Origin: Escherichia phage vB_vPM_PD112
Reading direction: 5' to 3' (one strand)
Sequence record: NC_054928.1
Length of the DNA stretch: 64,000 nt
Shown: one piece after another, positions 4,730 through 61,784 of the stretch
Layout: every line of letters starts with the position of its first letter
Position numbering within the stretch: the stretch's first letter is position 1
Position numbers and translations under genes: made by a program
The notes under the pieces: generated by a model
Databases searched by the model: none
The model's input: only the letters and a program-made list of their open reading frames with translations
Told to the model about the DNA's origin: nothing

Positions 4730-4743
4730 GGGGCTTCGGCCCC
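4730..4743 (+). terminator. Stem-loop GGGGC-UUCG-GCCCC downstream of gene 18
   Basis: Perfect 5-bp GC stem with UUCG tetraloop; no strong U-tract. Confidence 0.5.
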
Positions 4744-5997: not shown

Positions 5998-7622
<1,625 letters not shown>

Positions 7623-11352: not shown

Positions 11353-11366
11353 TCTTTGACGATTTA

Positions 11367-11396
11367 AGGGACCTTCGGGTCCCTTTAGTTGTTTTT
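11367..11396 (+). terminator. Intrinsic terminator (AGGGACC-UUCG-GGUCCCU plus U-rich tail) after gene 23
   Basis: GC stem, UUCG loop, followed by TTAGTTGTTTTTA. Confidence 0.7.
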
Positions 11397-14243: not shown

Positions 14244-14312
14244 GTTATCGAGTTGGTGCCATTATATACATCGTTTTCTGATTGTGTTTTGTGTGCTTTC
14301 AAAATGAAGAAA

Positions 14313-14326
14313 GGGGCCGAAGCCCC
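14313..14326 (-). terminator. Terminator hairpin GGGGC-UUCG-GCCCC plus U-rich tail downstream of hoc
   Basis: On the minus strand: GGGGCTTCGGCCCCTTTCTTCATTTT. Confidence 0.65.
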
Positions 14327-14331
14327 TGAGA

Positions 14332-16202: not shown

Positions 16203-17714
16203 ATGACTGACATTAAAGTACATTTTTATGATTTTAGTCACGTGAGAATTGATTGTGAAGAAAGTACATTTCATGAACTCCGTGATTTCTTTAGCTTTGA
16301 AGCTGATGGGTATCGTTTTAATCCTCGCTTCAGATATGGCAACTGGGATGGACGAATCCGTCTTTTAGATTATAATCGTCTTCTTCCATTCGGCTTAGTC
16401 GGGCAAATTAAAAAGTTCTGTGATAACTTTGGCTATAAAGCCTGGATTGACCCGCAAATTAACGAAAAAGAAGAATTATCAAGAAAAGATTTTGATGAAT
16501 GGCTTTCTAAGTTAGAAATCTATTCAGGAAATAAAAGAATTGAACCACACTGGTATCAAAAAGATGCAGTGTTCGAAGGATTAGTTAATCGTCGTAGAAT
16601 TCTTAATCTTCCAACATCCGCAGGTAAATCTTTAATTCAAGCTTTGCTTGCACGTTATTATTTGGAAAATTATGAAGGTAAAATTCTTATCATTGTTCCA
16701 ACAACTGCTCTGACAACTCAGATGGCTGATGACTTTGTTGACTATCGTTTATTCAGTCATGCAATGATAAAGAAAATCGGTGGTGGAGCATCAAAAGATG
16801 ATAAATATAAAAATGATGCACCGGTAATTGTTGGTACATGGCAAACTGTAGTAAAACAACCAAAAGAATGGTTCTCACAGTTTGGAATGATGATGAATGA
16901 TGAATGCCATCTTGCTACAGGAAAAAGTATTTCATCTATCATATCAGGTTTAAATAACTGCATGTTCAAATTCGGTTTGTCTGGTTCATTACGTGATGGC
17001 AAAGCCAATATCATGCAGTATGTTGGAATGTTTGGTGAAATATTTAAGCCAGTAACGACTTCTAAGTTAATGGAAGATGGACAAGTAACTGAGCTAAAAA
17101 TTAATAGTATTTTTCTTCGCTATCCCGATGAGTTCACTGCTAAATTAAAGGGAAAAACTTACCAAGAAGAAATAAAAATTATTACTGGGCTCAGTAAAAG
17201 AAATAAATGGATCGCTAAATTAGCTATTAAACTTGCGCAAAAAGATGAAAACGCTTTTGTCATGTTTAAGCATGTATCACATGGTAAAGCTATTTTCGAT
17301 TTAATTAAAAATGAATACGATAAAGTTTATTACGTATCAGGGGAAGTTGATACTGAAACACGCAACGTAATGAAAACTTTAGCTGAAAACGGTAAAGGAA
17401 TAATTATAGTAGCTAGTTATGGTGTATTTTCTACTGGTATTTCAGTTAAAAATCTGCATCATGTTGTTTTAGCGCACGGCGTTAAATCAAAAATCATTGT
17501 ATTACAAACAATCGGTCGTGTATTACGTAAGCATGGTTCTAAAACAATCGCAACGGTCTGGGACCTCATAGATGACGCGGGCGTTAGACCAAAATCTGCT
17601 AATACGAAAAAGAAATACGTTCATTTGAACTATCTTTTAAAACACGGCATTGATCGTATTCAGCGCTACGCAGATGAAAAATTTAATTACGTAATGAAAA
17701 CAGTTAATTTATAA
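16203..17714 (+). CDS. uvsW: UvsW DNA/RNA helicase (SF2, DECH box)
   Basis: 503 aa; Walker A PTSAGKS, DECH motif MMMNDECHLATG. Confidence 0.9.
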   Translation: MTDIKVHFYDFSHVRIDCEESTFHELRDFFSFEADGYRFNPRFRYGNWDGRIRLLDYNRLLPFGLVGQIKKFCDNFGYKAWIDPQINEKEELSRKDFDEWLSKLEIYSGNKRIEPHWYQKDAVFEGLVNRRRILNLPTSAGKSLIQALLARYYLENYEGKILIIVPTTALTTQMADDFVDYRLFSHAMIKKIGGGASKDDKYKNDAPVIVGTWQTVVKQPKEWFSQFGMMMNDECHLATGKSISSIISGLNNCMFKFGLSGSLRDGKANIMQYVGMFGEIFKPVTTSKLMEDGQVTELKINSIFLRYPDEFTAKLKGKTYQEEIKIITGLSKRNKWIAKLAIKLAQKDENAFVMFKHVSHGKAIFDLIKNEYDKVYYVSGEVDTETRNVMKTLAENGKGIIIVASYGVFSTGISVKNLHHVVLAHGVKSKIIVLQTIGRVLRKHGSKTIATVWDLIDDAGVRPKSANTKKKYVHLNYLLKHGIDRIQRYADEKFNYVMKTVNL

Positions 17715-17729
17715 GGGCTTCGGCCCTTT
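17715..17729 (+). terminator. Stem-loop GGGC-UUCG-GCCC plus UUU after uvsW
   Basis: Inverted repeat with UUCG loop. Confidence 0.45.
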
Positions 17730-25275: not shown

Positions 25276-26240
25276 TGTATTCTTTAGAGGAATTTAATAA
25301 TCAAGCAATAAACGCAGATTTCCAACGTAATAATATGTTTAGCTGCGTTTTTGCAACAACTCCATCAACTAAAAGCTCTTCGTTGATAAGTTCAATTAGC
25401 AACTTTTCTTATAATAACTTGGGCCTAAATTCAAATTGGTTAGGATTGACTCAAGGCGATATTAATCAGGGAATTACCACGCTAATTACTGCTGGCACAC
25501 AAAAACTGATAAGAAAATCAGGGGTTAGTAAATATCTTATTGGTGCCATGAGTCAACGTACAGTTCAAAGTTTATTAGGCTCATTCACAGTTGGTACATA
25601 TTTAATTGACTTCTTTAACATGGCATATAACTCATCTGGATTGATGATATACTCTGTAAAAATGCCAGAGAATAGATTATCCTATGAAACTGACTGGAAC
25701 TATAATTCTCCTAATATTCGTATAACTGGGAGAGAATTAGACCCTTTGGTTATTTCATTTAGAATGGATTCAGAAGCTTGTAATTATCGTGCGATGCAAG
25801 ACTGGGTTAACGCTGTTCAAGACCCAGTAACTGGATTACGTGCTTTGCCGCAAGATGTTGAAGCAGACATTCAGGTTAATCTTCATGCTCGTAATGGATT
25901 GCCTCATACTGCGGTGATGTTCACCGGATGCATTCCAATATCAGTGAGCGCTCCTGAGTTATCATATGATGGAGATAACCAAATAACTACATTTGATGTT
26001 ACTTTTGCGTATAGAGTCATGCAGGCTGGAGCAGTTGATAGACAAGCTGCGCTTGAATGGCTTGAATCTGCTGCTATAAATGGCATTCAAAGCGTTCTCG
26101 GAAATAGTGGAGGTGTTACTGGACTATCTAATTCGCTTTCACGACTTAGTAGACTAGGAGGAACCTCAGGAAGCATTTCAAACATTAATACTATGACAGG
26201 GATTGTCAATTCGCAGAGTAAAATATTAGGAGCAATATAA
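25275..26240 (+). CDS. 54: Baseplate-tail tube initiator gp54
   Basis: 321-aa ORF at the T4 gene 54 position. Confidence 0.85.
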   Translation: MYSLEEFNNQAINADFQRNNMFSCVFATTPSTKSSSLISSISNFSYNNLGLNSNWLGLTQGDINQGITTLITAGTQKLIRKSGVSKYLIGAMSQRTVQSLLGSFTVGTYLIDFFNMAYNSSGLMIYSVKMPENRLSYETDWNYNSPNIRITGRELDPLVISFRMDSEACNYRAMQDWVNAVQDPVTGLRALPQDVEADIQVNLHARNGLPHTAVMFTGCIPISVSAPELSYDGDNQITTFDVTFAYRVMQAGAVDRQAALEWLESAAINGIQSVLGNSGGVTGLSNSLSRLSRLGGTSGSISNINTMTGIVNSQSKILGAI

Positions 26241-26244
26241 CAAT

Positions 26245-26270
26245 GGGGACCGAAAGGTCCCCATATTTTT
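26245..26270. terminator. Bidirectional terminator hairpin GGGGACC-GAAA-GGUCCCC plus T-run between gene 54 and the minus-strand block
   Basis: Perfect 7-bp stem, GAAA loop, ATATTTTTATTT. Confidence 0.7.
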
Positions 26271-26559
26271 ATTTACGGAATGAAATGAAAGCAGCAACTG
26301 AAGCAACTAAACTGTCTTCAATATAAACTTCAATTTTTACCGGAGCTTCTGACTCAAATTTACCTGTTACTACACCCTGAAAAATACTTTCAGTCTGTTC
26401 TGGCTTTGAAAAATTTTCAGAAGGAAAAATTCCAAACTTTTTATCTGTTCCGAAAATTTTGATAAATTCATCATAAACCACTTCGTTAAAAGCATTATCA
26501 GCAGGAATAACGCCTTCAACTACAAGTTCTTGACCTAAAAAGCGTAAAGAAGATTTCAT
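26269..26559 (-). CDS. Hypothetical protein (T4 alt.-3-like)
   Basis: 96-aa ORF with GAGGAA SD directly downstream of an early-promoter stem-loop element. Confidence 0.6.
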   Translation of the reverse strand: MKSSLRFLGQELVVEGVIPADNAFNEVVYDEFIKIFGTDKKFGIFPSENFSKPEQTESIFQGVVTGKFESEAPVKIEVYIEDSLVASVAAFISFRK

Positions 26560-26563
26560 TTTG

Positions 26564-26610
26564 TGTTCCTCATGTTATGTCAGTAAGTCTACTATAACAC
26601 AACACGAGGG
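26564..26610 (-). promoter_or_regulatory. Early promoter / promoter-early stem-loop (PeSL)-like element, copy 1
   Basis: Minus strand GTTTACA-(17 nt)-TATAGT sigma70-like promoter over an inverted repeat; 47 nt near-identical to 40147-40193. Confidence 0.65.
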
Positions 26611-26619
26611 ACTTGTAAA

Positions 26620-26979
26620 CTACATTTTGAACTTTTTAGTACGCGTAATAGGCATGCGTCGATTTTATACTGTTTCATTGTTTGAAGAGCAGTATCAAAA
26701 CAGCATTAATGACACCAATTGGATTTCCACCCAAGTTTTTAAGCTTAACTAATGATAGTTTCTCATTAACACCTATCATTACGATATGCATCATTTTGTC
26801 GCCTGGTTTAACGTTTTATCTGTATCACCGCCAGAGGTGTATGTACAAAATCTAAATCCAGGAAGCACGCTTTCTTCGCCGGCTTGAATAGCAAAAATTT
26901 GCGGTATTTTATGCTTAGGATTTAAGTTAACAACCGGCGCCGAAGCGCCGTCAAATAATTATGTAATAAGTTCCATGAT
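26620..26979 (-). pseudogene. Decayed partial duplicate of the alt 5' region (about first 120 codons; stops and frameshift)
   Basis: Begins right after the alt stop as ATGGAACTTATTACATAA (MELIT*); translation keeps alt-like blocks NLNPKHKIPQIF...PGFRFCTYTSGGDT...KMMHIV...YKIDAC across frame breaks. Confidence 0.7.
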
Positions 26980-29031
26980 TTATCCTTGAACGAACTTGTA
27001 AGGCATGTTTGCAATATCTATGCAAGACGCAATAATTCCAAGAGATGATTCTACTTTCTGTTTAACATTTGATGAAACAAATGATGCAAAGTCAACTCTA
27101 TCTTCTATATCACCTGTTATTGTAACCAATTCACCAGTTTCCATTAAACGGTCACCGTCATAAATTGCCGATTCGGTGAGTTCTTCTGTAGTCATAACTT
27201 CAGCTTGAATAAGCTTGTTGTTAGTTCTAACTGTTCCATCGTTGTAAGATGCATCGGTTATTTTATTAACTTTGACCATTAATCCACGTGGCAAAATGAC
27301 TTCCATTTCATTTGAAGGCGCTAAACTTCCACCGGGTAAAACAACATTGACCTTATCAGCCCCAGTAATAACCCATCCAATTCCGACTAAATTATCGCTA
27401 GAATTAACAAGCCCTTCATCAGTTTTATCAATAGAAACACTTAGACGCTTTTCGTCTGGTAAAACACCTATAGATGAATCAGTCATCCAAGTACCAAAAA
27501 TATTTGGATATAATGATGTTGACACAAAGTTTCTAAAATAAAAAACTCGATTTTTTACCAATGCTTCATATATTGAAGGTAACATTCGTTGCGAACGATA
27601 TAAAGTAATACCTTTTGGCAATCGATCACCATTTTTAAAGGCTGAATCTAAATTATCGATGGCTTGTTCTATTTCGGGTGCTGTCAAAATACTTGTACGC
27701 TCATCTGGATTATATAATCCCAAAAGAGCATTATTCATGTCTACATATCCTGAACCCACATATTCACGAATTCCGCGTTTTTGAGCCGGTGTGTATTTAG
27801 ATGAATCTTTATTTTCGACTATAGAATGCAATGACCATCCAACGGTAAGAGCATATCCACGTAATTCTCTTCGAATAATCTTTGTTTTTATTGCATTCCA
27901 AGAATTTTGCACTAACTCATTTGCAGCATCTTGATTTAAATGCGAATGCTTGCTAATATTTCTTTCTAACCAAGCACTTTTATATTTTTCTAAAGTATCA
28001 TCGACTATAGAAGCAATAGTTTCTAAAGTTTTTATTGAAGTAATAGATTCTTTTCGTAATCTTTCTAAAGCTTTATTTTTTATTTCTGCATTAACATCAG
28101 ATTCTTTATCTTCAGGAATTATAGAAGCTTCTCTGAATGCCATTCCAGCTGTAACACTATTAAGAGCATTCTCTAATGCAAATCCTGAAGTAGAAATAAC
28201 GGTTAATTCGTTAGCATCAGAAATTAAAGGCGCGTCGGCGGGTTTATTTAATTCTGCTGCTGAAGCCTCAAATTTTTGAAACATTGGTGTTTCAAATCTA
28301 GAAGATTCCAATGACTGACTTTGTGCAATTGCTCTACGGGAAATTTTAACTTTAACGATTACAGCTTGGTCAGAACGTTTATCATTTTCTTGTGCAATAG
28401 ATGCTGCAATTGCCTCATTTTTAGTTACTTGAGCTCCAGTATCTTTATTGATATAAACATCACCGACCTTCGATTCAACCTTAGTAAAGAGCTCGGTACT
28501 AATTTCCGGAACCCCTGGAATGTCTTCTAGTGATACATTTTTGCGATGTATAAGAATATATGCATACTTTTTATCATAATCCCAGAGTTCCTTAAGAAGG
28601 ACGTATCTGCCACCTGAACGACTACGGATAAGTCTATCAGCAATAACTTGAATTTGTCGAGCTTGACCAGCGGTTTTAGACTTAAGAATACGAAGCATAC
28701 AAGCATCAATTTTATACTGACGCATTGTTTGCATTGCAACAGTAAAAACTGAATTGATATAATTAATTGGGCTTGGACCAAGACCTTTCAATTTAGCAAT
28801 TGAACCTTTAGCGGTTAATGTAAAAGGAACAATATGCATCATTTTATCGCCCATCTTTAAATCACGATTAGTATCACCTCCAGATGTATAGGTACATAAA
28901 CGAAAGCCTGGTTGTTCAATTGCGTCATCAACATGAACTGAAAAAATTTGCGGTATTTTCTTCTTTGGATTTAAGTTTGTAATTGGAAGAGTAGTATCTT
29001 CGTCAAATAATTCTGTAATTAGTTCCATCAT
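26980..29031 (-). CDS. alt: Alt ADP-ribosyltransferase (virion-packaged)
   Basis: 683 aa, MMELITELFDEDTTLPITNLNPKKKIPQIF... Confidence 0.9.
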   Translation of the reverse strand: MMELITELFDEDTTLPITNLNPKKKIPQIFSVHVDDAIEQPGFRLCTYTSGGDTNRDLKMGDKMMHIVPFTLTAKGSIAKLKGLGPSPINYINSVFTVAMQTMRQYKIDACMLRILKSKTAGQARQIQVIADRLIRSRSGGRYVLLKELWDYDKKYAYILIHRKNVSLEDIPGVPEISTELFTKVESKVGDVYINKDTGAQVTKNEAIAASIAQENDKRSDQAVIVKVKISRRAIAQSQSLESSRFETPMFQKFEASAAELNKPADAPLISDANELTVISTSGFALENALNSVTAGMAFREASIIPEDKESDVNAEIKNKALERLRKESITSIKTLETIASIVDDTLEKYKSAWLERNISKHSHLNQDAANELVQNSWNAIKTKIIRRELRGYALTVGWSLHSIVENKDSSKYTPAQKRGIREYVGSGYVDMNNALLGLYNPDERTSILTAPEIEQAIDNLDSAFKNGDRLPKGITLYRSQRMLPSIYEALVKNRVFYFRNFVSTSLYPNIFGTWMTDSSIGVLPDEKRLSVSIDKTDEGLVNSSDNLVGIGWVITGADKVNVVLPGGSLAPSNEMEVILPRGLMVKVNKITDASYNDGTVRTNNKLIQAEVMTTEELTESAIYDGDRLMETGELVTITGDIEDRVDFASFVSSNVKQKVESSLGIIASCIDIANMPYKFVQG

Positions 29032-29051
29032 ATCCTCTCTAGTGTTTATTC

Positions 29052-29059
29052 TATTTATA
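29052..29059 (-). promoter_or_regulatory. Late promoter box TATAAATA upstream of alt
   Basis: Minus-strand TATAAATA about 20 nt before the alt ATG. Confidence 0.5.
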
Positions 29060-29065
29060 AAATTA

Positions 29066-29083
29066 AAGGCCCGAAGGCCTTTA
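29066..29083 (-). terminator. Stem-loop AAAGGCC-UUCG-GGCCUUU upstream of alt
   Basis: Inverted repeat with UUCG loop followed by T-rich run. Confidence 0.5.
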
Positions 29084-29269
29084 ATAATCTAACGGTAAGA
29101 GAGTACGATATATTTCAAACTTTGGACCTTTTTCATAGGCATCAAATGTTTCTGTGAATTTATTATAAGCATATGCATCTACAAATTCGAGAATGACTTG
29201 TGATACAGAAGTAGAAACATCTCCACCTTCTTTTTGAGCAACGACAATTGTTTCTAAGTAAGCTTTCAT
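29081..29269 (-). CDS. Hypothetical small protein
   Basis: 62-aa ORF between gene 30 and alt. Confidence 0.5.
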   Translation of the reverse strand: MKAYLETIVVAQKEGGDVSTSVSQVILEFVDAYAYNKFTETFDAYEKGPKFEIYRTLLPLDY

Positions 29270-30726
29270 AGACCAGTTACCTCATGAAAATCACCAAATA
29301 CATCCTCGAATGTATTGGCTTTAGTTTTATCTTCGCGTAAACGAATCGCAATCGGAAGAAATAATTTAACGTAATCAGTGCGGCCATCAGATTTTAACCA
29401 ACCGTTGCATTCGCACTCTAGAATTTTTCCAATATAATAATTTTGGTTTTCCATAATGCGAGTACGGTCAAGTTCATGCGATTTTACACCGGCTTTATCT
29501 TTTAAGCCTGAACCAGCATTTACCTTAATTTTTCCACACTCTGACTCAAGAATAAATCCACCTGCTTTAGTAGGGTCTTTGCGGTGAGGATAAATTCCTA
29601 CAATTTTTAAATCAACATCAATTACTTCTTTAAATTTATAGAGATTTTTTGAACGAGCATTTTCCCATAATCCATCGATATTTTTGAGAATAATACCTTC
29701 AAGACCTTGGTCAATATACTTTTTATAAATTACCTTAGCTTCATCTAGGTTATTTACTACCTGGTTTTCAATTAAAATTACTTTATCATATCCTGATGTC
29801 ATTTGTTCTAGTTTAGAAAAACGTACATCATATTTCAAACGAAATGCAGGAAGACCGTATATTTCTACCAACGGAACATAATCCCAGACCTGAAACTTCA
29901 TACATTGGGCTTCTTTTTCAGAAATGGTTCCCTTTAAAGATTTATTGGCGATTCCATTAGAAGTAGTACGTGATTCAGCTACTTCGGCGAATTCTTTGGC
30001 TTTACTAATTTCAGGAGCATCAAAAAGAAAATCTAGGCCTTCTGGCTCCTTTTCAACTTGCTCATGGTATACCAATTCGCCATCAATTAACACACCTTCT
30101 GGATGAATCTGGCGGGCTTCAGCGGTCATTTTGATTAACTCTTCCTTAAGAAGATCTAATCCTAGGTATTCATTGCCAGCTCGTGATAAAAGACGAACAT
30201 CATCTAATTCATCGCCTCGGACTTCAGCAAAACACCGAGCTCCATCTGCTTTTAACTGCGCAAAGGCTGGAAACTTGATATTCTTACTAATGCCTTTTTC
30301 ATCATAAGAACTTGCCAGCATTTGAGGTTGTTCAGGAATTAAACCTGGCCAAACTTTGTTTGCAATAGATACTGAAGCACCGCATTCAAGGTCTCGCATC
30401 ATCACTCGACGCAAAACTTCAACATCATCTTTTTTACCATCGGTGATATATCCAGTTAATTCCTCAATTGCTGCATTTCCAGTCAATTTCCGAGTAGCTA
30501 ATGTGAATTCAATGAAGTCAAGCATATCGGTAAGAGTCAACATTCCAAAACTCTGGGTAGCAATACCAGGTTTAGGCCATTTCTTGATATAATACTGTAA
30601 CCCACGAGAATAAGTCAGACGATATACTCGTTTAAGCAATTCATTATCTTTATTCTTTTCAAGAATTGCTTGTTTCTGCTTAGTTGATCCAATAGATGCT
30701 ATTTCATTCAGAATTTTAAGAATCAT
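29266..30726 (-). CDS. 30: ATP-dependent DNA ligase gp30
   Basis: 486-aa ORF at the T4 gene 30 position with ligase-like sequence. Confidence 0.9.
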   Translation of the reverse strand: MILKILNEIASIGSTKQKQAILEKNKDNELLKRVYRLTYSRGLQYYIKKWPKPGIATQSFGMLTLTDMLDFIEFTLATRKLTGNAAIEELTGYITDGKKDDVEVLRRVMMRDLECGASVSIANKVWPGLIPEQPQMLASSYDEKGISKNIKFPAFAQLKADGARCFAEVRGDELDDVRLLSRAGNEYLGLDLLKEELIKMTAEARQIHPEGVLIDGELVYHEQVEKEPEGLDFLFDAPEISKAKEFAEVAESRTTSNGIANKSLKGTISEKEAQCMKFQVWDYVPLVEIYGLPAFRLKYDVRFSKLEQMTSGYDKVILIENQVVNNLDEAKVIYKKYIDQGLEGIILKNIDGLWENARSKNLYKFKEVIDVDLKIVGIYPHRKDPTKAGGFILESECGKIKVNAGSGLKDKAGVKSHELDRTRIMENQNYYIGKILECECNGWLKSDGRTDYVKLFLPIAIRLREDKTKANTFEDVFGDFHEVTGL

Positions 30727-32966: not shown

Positions 32967-32983
32967 AGTATTTTCCTCAGTAA

Positions 32984-32997
32984 GGGGCCGAAGCCCC
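32984..32997 (-). terminator. Stem-loop GGGGC-UUCG-GCCCC (third copy of this 14-mer)
   Basis: Same 14-mer as at 4730, 14313 and 61759. Confidence 0.5.
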
Positions 32998-33007
32998 TCA
33001 TTTTATT

Positions 33008-33868: not shown

Positions 33869-33921
33869 CAACTTTGTGCAATCTTTGGAAAATAAAAAGG
33901 ACTCCCGAAGGAGTCCTTAAC

Positions 33922-40135: not shown

Positions 40136-40146
40136 AAAGTCCTCGT

Positions 40147-40193
40147 GTTATGTCAGTAAGACTACTATAACACAACACGAGGGACTTGTAAAC
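40147..40193 (-). promoter_or_regulatory. Early promoter / PeSL-like element, copy 2 (upstream of alc)
   Basis: Minus strand TTTACA (40187-40192) - 17 nt - TATAGT (40164-40169); inverted repeat CCTCGTGTT / AACACGAGG; then ACGAGGA SD and the alc ATG. Confidence 0.7.
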
Positions 40194-57699: not shown

Positions 57700-57704
57700 A
57701 TTGA

Positions 57705-57730
57705 GGGAGCCTTCGGGTTCCCTTTTTCTT
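57705..57730 (+). terminator. Terminator hairpin GGGAGCC-UUCG-GGUUCCC plus U-run after gene 35
   Basis: Stem-loop followed by TTTTTCTT. Confidence 0.65.
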
Positions 57731-61753: not shown

Positions 61754-61758
61754 TAAGA

Positions 61759-61772
61759 GGGGCTTCGGCCCC
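61759..61772 (+). terminator. Stem-loop GGGGC-UUCG-GCCCC between genes 37 and 38
   Basis: Same 14-mer as at 4730; followed by GGAGG SD for gene 38. Confidence 0.5.
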
Positions 61773-61784
61773 TTGGAGGTTTAT

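Follow-up and report, generated by a model that had tools for sequence, protein, structure and literature searches.

A relic downstream of alt in a T4-like Escherichia phage is very probably the stump of a second, full-length alt-like gene

The sequence examined is a 64,000-nt window, i.e., the whole stretch of DNA analyzed, of Escherichia phage vB_vPM_PD112 (NC_054928.1), a Tequatrovirus (T4-like). On the minus strand, DNA ligase (29266-30726) and alt.1 (29081-29269) are followed by alt (26980-29031), an ORF annotated as alt in T4T that encodes an intact, 683-aa Alt ADP-ribosyltransferase with the Pfam domain ADPrib_exo_Tox (PF03496) at residues 375-615 (E = 2e-33). Downstream of alt lies the relic described here (26620-26976), which is on the alt strand between the alt stop codon and the alt.-3 promoter, as is the T4 relic. 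Its larger part (26631-26976, minus) corresponds to T4 alt.-1 plus alt.-2 and to codons 1-116 of the second alt-like gene, for which we use the name alt2, and ends with a single retained copy of a 9-nt repeat; the remainder (26620-26630, minus) is the last 11 nt of the alt2 3’ end after the repeat, aligned to the T2 alt2 3’ end (L004:7048-7058). An early promoter/stem-loop cassette (26566-26620, minus), identified by a promoter scan and RNA folding, then leads into alt.-3 (26269-26559, minus), which encodes an intact, 96-aa DUF5498 protein (Pfam PF17602, E = 8e-64) unrelated to Alt and is annotated as alt.-3 in T4T, T2 and PP01. The plus-strand genes gp54 and gp48 are found in the same neighborhood of the window. 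Between the convergent alt.-3 and gp54, a perfect 9-bp palindromic hairpin, ATGGGGACC-GAAA-GGTCCCCAT (26243-26264), scores as a terminator on both strands; the e11/2 record calls it a bidirectional terminator, and the G2540-3 record a terminator. An Rfam search of 26000-29400 returned nothing meaningful, the IRES_APC match at 21 bits (50-bit cut-off) being due to chance. In two relatives, the primary alt itself looks broken in the annotation: two CDS of 1731 and 327 nt in G2540-3 (L015 1-421) and only an 885-nt Alt-like CDS in Pu-Krd-SF5 (L018 1-420). The primary alt may be inactivated in these phages too, or the breaks may stem from errors of sequencing or annotation.

Directly after the alt stop codon, the minus strand reads ATGGAACTTATTACATAA, MELIT followed by a stop, just as the original prediction had it: the ATG (26976-26974) is 3 nt past the alt stop, and the TAA is at 26961-26959. 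A nucleotide alignment confirms the similarity to the alt 5’ end claimed there: in a whole-window blastn, the segment 26620-26976 matches it with 70.5% identity over 210 nt (E = 7.8e-21). A tblastn search with Alt returns three collinear matches in three frames (residues 1-63, 57-98 and 96-118; joint E = 1.3e-31), with 55-74% aa identity between Alt and the blocks of the stump over residues 1-118; this similarity is far beyond chance. The only strong matches of the fragment within the window are the alt 5’ end and the copy of the promoter element at 40140-40193. Recognizable Alt N-terminal blocks are distributed among the frames, with NLNPKHKIPQIF and PGFRFCTYTSGGDT together in one, KMMHIV in another and QYKIDAC in a third. 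The segment was thus rightly recognized as a decayed alt-like copy directly after alt, given its homology in three frames and its lesions; as for the “stops and a frameshift” ascribed to it, the interruptions are real, but their count is different, viz. two frameshifts and one nonsense codon. The frame-repaired translation matches positions 2-119 of the 674 positions of phrog_802 (E = 5e-48) and contains no Pfam domain, ADPrib_exo_Tox included. No intact conserved protein is encoded in another frame: the ORFs are short, and their matches in Pfam and PHROGs are pieces of Alt only.

In T2 and PP01, alt2 is an intact 2058-nt gene, encoding 685 aa, that lies exactly between alt and alt.-3, and the PF03496 catalytic domain of T2 Alt2 (residues 416-620) falls inside the segment that is deleted in the window. 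T4 Alt (gpAlt) has N-terminal homology to the stump; full-length Alt2, however, is only 41.7% identical in amino acids to the window Alt, and alt2 is therefore an old paralogue of alt. The stump shares about 96% nucleotide identity with T2 alt2 and about 70% with the neighboring alt, and its frame-repaired translation finds an uninterrupted match with about 95% identity in many relatives, e.g., T2, PP01, Sf21 and Ac3. The annotation of these matches varies between Alt-like ADP-ribosyltransferase (“Alt-like RNA polymerase ADP-ribosyltransferase”) and hypothetical protein; several phages have two to three Alt-like places per genome. The intact genes have the same flanking genes as the stump, and by sequence comparison the segment is an orthologue of alt2 and not a recent copy of the adjacent alt. 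We are highly confident that the segment 26620-26976 is a pseudogene, the stump of alt2 left by a 1699-bp deletion and subsequently decayed further. The idea that alt.-3 is the C-terminal part of alt2 was rejected: DUF5498 is unrelated, and alt.-3 adjoins the intact alt2 too.

The deletion can be delineated to the nucleotide. In a blastn comparison with T2, the window matches in two pieces, L004:4878-5348 (95.8%) and 7039-7478 (95.7%), which overlap by 9 nt in the query. These 9 nt, CTAAAAAGT, are present twice in T2, at L004:5340-5348 and 7039-7047, 1699 bp apart; the left copy constitutes alt2 codons 114-116, and the right copy is located 20 nt before the alt2 stop. The window has a single copy at the junction (26631-26639, minus), identical in all 19 junction-bearing sequences aligned, and T4 likewise has one copy. 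In the lineage to which T4 and this phage belong, a single 1699-bp deletion, not a multiple of three, has taken away codons 117-682, the whole catalytic domain with them; 348 nt of the alt2 5’ part and 20 nt of its 3’ part remain, the retained repeat copy being counted in both, and the reading frame is interrupted. The original TAG stop of alt2 is still present at 26622-26620, where its G doubles as the first base of the -35 GTTTAC. Because the alt2 3’ end and stop codon survive, the right breakpoint must lie inside alt2 rather than in the cassette; both breakpoints are within alt2, 11-20 nt upstream of the cassette, and the cassette is found at the same place next to the intact alt2 of T2 and PP01. 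The PeSL-like repeat pointed out in the original prediction is thus a real, repeated element (with a second copy at 40140-40193), but it is not the recombination boundary that it was proposed to be: the breakpoints are the CTAAAAAGT copies, and the cassette was rejected as the deletion boundary.

Slipped mispairing or short-homology recombination, the classical route to deletions in T4, characteristically leaves behind one copy of a short direct repeat, and deletions between short direct repeats are familiar from T4 rII deletion studies. Judging from the junction, the alt2 deletion would have arisen in this way, through slipped mispairing or short-homology recombination between the 9-nt repeats. 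With a 9-nt repeat at both ends and one copy kept, alt2 resembles the short-direct-repeat deletions of T4 and E. coli (Albertini et al., 1982). In PP01, the left repeat copy (L005 5340-5348) is CTAAAGAGT, one mismatch away from the right copy; the perfect repeat pair behind the T4-type deletion is not present in every phage with an intact alt2.

The relic itself is already known from T4. A passage of the T4T GenBank note describes alt.-1 and alt.-2 together as a deletion and further frame shift in a second alt gene copy, and the two were listed as a paralogous duplication of alt (Nolan et al., 2006). The segment is 98.3% identical in nucleotides to the T4 alt.-1/alt.-2/alt.-3 region over 900 nt, and T4 alt.-1/alt.-2 (T4p199/T4p198; UniProt P39495/P39494) have the same position, junction and A-run frameshift as the relic in the window, which is two lesions further, with codon 6 turned into TAA and one base lost from a T5 run. 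RB49ORF183c, 44RRORF188c and 44RRORF187c are also alt-adjacent paralogues, some of them truncated (Nolan et al., 2006); these alt duplicates of RB49 and 44RR share the theme with the relic and are independent events in distant lineages.

The population picture places T4 and the window in a minority. A 901-nt query across the segment matched 502 phage records. The junction is found in 88 records (81-nt junction query, at least 80% covered), which include many entries for T4 laboratory strains and some RefSeq/GenBank duplicates; an uninterrupted alt2 is found in at least 308 records (91-nt query over the intact T2 left breakpoint, at least 80% covered). An intact alt2 is what most records show, and it is T4 that departs from the norm. 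A scan of IMG/VR for the junction yielded two contigs, too few for an independent survey.

In an alignment of 19 junction-bearing sequences (the window, 16 phage records and two IMG/VR contigs) with T2 and PP01, the lesions form a nested series. The 1699-bp deletion has an identical junction in 19/19. A -1 frameshift in an A run (26814-26817, minus), A4 where intact alt2 has A5, is present in 18/19 and is the lesion that splits alt.-1 from alt.-2 in T4. A TAA nonsense codon at alt2 codon 6 (26959-26961, minus), GAA in T4, T2 and PP01, is shared by 12/19. A second -1 frameshift (26697-26700, minus), T4 where phages T4 and T2 have T5, is present in 4/19 and common only to the window, CE1, IME537 and 235Ecol030PP, all within the TAA group; at the site of this lesion, a 120-nt ORF is annotated in the latter three. 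F25 alone has lost one base from the A-run of the junction repeat. All of the nested lesions are present in the window, where alt.-1 ends at codon 6 and alt.-2 has no more than 39 codons. In T4, the two ORFs are open, with 61 codons in alt.-1 and 67 codons in alt.-2 and an ATGA stop/start overlap; neither is intact in the window because of the TAA at codon 6 and the -1 in the T5 run. Salmonella phage SG1 (L020 532-810) has the deletion and the TAA, yet also an A5 run, with a T-to-C change beside it and a 279-nt ORF annotated as RNA polymerase-ADP-ribosyltransferase; since SG1 keeps A5 although it belongs with the TAA carriers, the small lesions do not follow a perfectly tree-like order. The homopolymer may have reverted, SG1 may have recombined with an intact copy, or its sequence may contain an error.

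Substitutions point in the same direction. Private substitutions, those found in one genome and not in intact copies, fall on codon positions 1, 2 and 3 in numbers of 2, 5 and 3, respectively, whereas the shared (older) polymorphisms, most of which are also seen in intact genes, number 3, 0 and 8. The private substitutions thus show no bias toward the third codon position. Small as these numbers are, the pattern is that expected of relaxed constraint after inactivation. At about 4%, the stump does not diverge from T2 more than the flanking genes do; the deletion is therefore recent, and the relaxed-constraint signal comes from few sites. Pieces of the stump have found their way into protein families and annotations: phrog_23015 (61 positions) and phrog_15247 (67 positions), both of unknown function, match exactly T4 Alt.-1 and Alt.-2 (26675-26976, minus) and each represent one half of a pseudogene, and several records label stump pieces “ADP-ribosyltransferase.”

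Two other histories of the segment compete with a decayed, once full-length alt2. In the original prediction, only the alt 5’ end was tandemly duplicated, with the PeSL as a recombination boundary, and the copy then decayed. Such an event would fit a stump that spans only the N-terminal 118 residues and comes within 11 nt of the cassette, and PeSL elements have been reported to mediate indels in T4-like phages, but the comparison with T2 and PP01 refutes it: the stump resembles T2 alt2 (~96%) rather than the adjacent alt (~70%), the full-length alt2 predominates, the CTAAAAAGT breakpoints lie inside alt2, whose 3’ end and stop survive upstream of the cassette, and the cassette is in the same place where alt2 is intact. 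Duplication of the 5’ end is thus almost certainly not what happened. Alternatively, alt.-1 and alt.-2 could be functional small proteins, e.g., N-terminal Alt-like peptides with a MELITE... leader, maintained by selection after the deletion. A role in T4 itself, where both overlapping ORFs are open, is formally possible; their RNA is detected in T4 transcriptome/proteome data (class middle), and the stump has been kept in 88 records instead of being lost completely. Against this, the nonsense codon at codon 6 (12/19), the extra frameshift (4/19) and the private -1 of F25 break the ORFs, leaving the window with an alt.-1 that stops at codon 6 and a 39-codon alt.-2; the private substitutions show no codon-position bias; and no Alt.-1 or Alt.-2 protein was detected in the T4 omics data, so that of the transcript and peptide suggested by the original prediction as things to look for, T4 provides the former and not the latter. 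Proteins of 40-70 aa are often missed by proteomics, and the absence of these peptides is consequently weak evidence. Taken together, we consider selected small proteins very unlikely. The alt2 stump probably makes no functional protein, and we infer that its DNA is now only a transcribed trailer of alt. A C(UUCG)G hairpin is still part of this stretch, in a position that would suit a 3’-end hairpin of alt, and the unaffected early promoter cassette of alt.-3 follows.

The hairpin, CGGCGC-UUCG-GCGCCG (26935-26950, minus), has a 6-bp stem and a UUCG loop and is located 30 nt past the alt stop codon. Its sequence, GGCGCUUCGGCGCC, is invariant in 21/21 aligned sequences, while the flanking bases vary. 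In the intact T2 and PP01 alt2, it makes up codons 10-15, encoding D-G-A-S-A-P; it is non-coding in the window. Because intact alt2 has exactly these bases, the hairpin is neither an insertion nor, as had been proposed, a replacement of an internal segment, and both ideas were rejected: the hairpin is native coding sequence of T2 and PP01 alt2. The motif GCTTCGGC has 10 occurrences in the window, compared with 0.74 expected, a 13-fold enrichment. Apart from the alt2 hairpin, every C(UUCG)G hairpin whose stem has 5 bp or more is positioned -1 to 14 nt from a stop codon on the same strand. This range takes in the hairpin after alt.1, which overlaps the alt.1 stop (29081-29083); the 181-nt distance obtained for it is spurious, the alt.1 ORF having been discarded by the ORF filter. 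C(UUCG)G hairpins at 4730-4743, 11366-11385, 14312-14327, 17713-17728, 29062-29085, 32981-33000, 33897-33918, 57703-57724 and 61757-61774 all belong to the strand that is transcribed and lie only a few nt from a stop codon, often without a U-tract. With a gap of only 3 nt between alt and alt2, a 3’-end hairpin of alt would have to fall inside alt2, and the alt2 hairpin may plausibly be such a hairpin. No U-tract follows it, the terminator scan made no terminator call there, the records carry no terminator annotation at this site, and its local fold z-score is only -1.55.

The cassette in front of alt.-3 combines a predicted promoter with an RNA stem. The promoter has a -35 GTTTACA (26620-26614) and a TG-extended -10 TATAGT (26596-26591), a TTTACA-17-TATAGT arrangement that scores 10/12. 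The stem has 14 bp (-23.3 kcal/mol, z -3.8): its 5’ arm (26609-26596) is in the -35/-10 spacer, the -10 box and the expected transcription start fall in its loop, and its 3’ arm (26581-26568) contains the alt.-3 SD GAGG (26571-26568), upstream of the ATG at 26559-26557. A second copy of the cassette (40140-40193, minus), 96% identical over 54 nt, is located between rnlA (gene 63) and alc and includes an exact 30-mer (40164-40193; 0 expected by chance); its fold is -29.1 kcal/mol, with a z-score of -4.2. The 54 nt shared by alt.-3 and alc run exactly from the -35 GTTTAC to the SD GAGGA. Among 14 distinct copies of the cassette, pairing is kept by single-sided transitions (C-G to U.G; G.U to A-U or G-C), with one pairing break (C to A, L025) and no double compensatory change. 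The latter makes for weak covariation support for the stem, and evidence for a conserved RNA structure in the cassette is, at the sequence level, modest. Concerted evolution of the alt.-3 and alc cassettes appeared plausible in four genomes; it was not upheld after four IMG/VR genomes were added (the IMG/VR cassette scan gave nine stretches only) because the copies within a genome differ at up to four positions.

PeSLs were defined as promoters with a stem-loop between the -35 and -10 elements or overlapping the -10 (Arbiol et al., 2010), and the alt.-3 cassette has this layout: a predicted σ70-type early promoter, a stem over the spacer and -10, an SD and start codon at the 3’ end, and repetition. 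It differs from the stem-loop (AGNA-loop-TCNT) found just upstream of the promoter in the PST/T4 pair (Comeau et al., 2014): the cassette has no stem upstream of the -35, and its stem overlaps the promoter. Nor is the stem of the G-run/C-run type of the RB49 PeSL, and, in contrast to a PeSL acting as a crossover site, the cassette is not the breakpoint of the local deletion.

No U-tract follows the cassette stem. The position of the 3’ arm over the SD suggests translational masking rather than termination. Transcripts from the early promoter would be without the 5’ arm of the stem and have the SD exposed, and middle or late read-through RNA from alt would fold the 14-bp stem over the SD, silencing alt.-3. 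T4 alt.-3 and alc are early at both the RNA and the protein level.

These elements raise the question of why the stump has been retained. It could be kept for cis-acting RNA, with the hairpin defining or protecting the alt mRNA 3’ end and the spacing to the alt.-3 cassette preserved as well; such a role is compatible with the pseudogene reading, to which it would add a reason for retention. The invariance of the hairpin in 21 sequences amid varying flanks, the 13-fold enrichment of its motif in the window and the placement of the other hairpins next to same-strand stops (-1 to 14 nt) speak for this role, but the alt2 hairpin has no U-tract, terminator call or annotated terminator, its z-score is unremarkable, it sits within a translated gene in T2, and invariance over 16 nt at a divergence of about 4% is weak evidence; retention for a cis-acting RNA is thus conceivable, though on the unlikely side. 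A broader proposal, in which the relic has been co-opted as RNA, with the hairpin as the protected 3’ end of alt mRNA and the cassette as an early-only translational switch, also at alc, is speculative and seems improbable to us. If true, the cassette switch would mirror in time the arrangement known from the T4 genes e, soc, 49 and I-TevI, whose hairpins have a late promoter embedded in them.

The reading that we favor is that of a pseudogene, the stump of a full-length alt2. As a discovery, the relic matters little, having already been described in T4; what is added here is the exact junction (a 9-nt repeat and 1699 bp), the intact alt2 of the majority and the nested decay series. The analysis also carries a warning for annotation: phrog_23015, phrog_15247 and many “hypothetical protein” or “ADP-ribosyltransferase” calls rest on pieces of a pseudogene. 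Most relatives of T4 encode a second injected-type ADP-ribosyltransferase, which T4 itself, the model for Alt biology, does not have.
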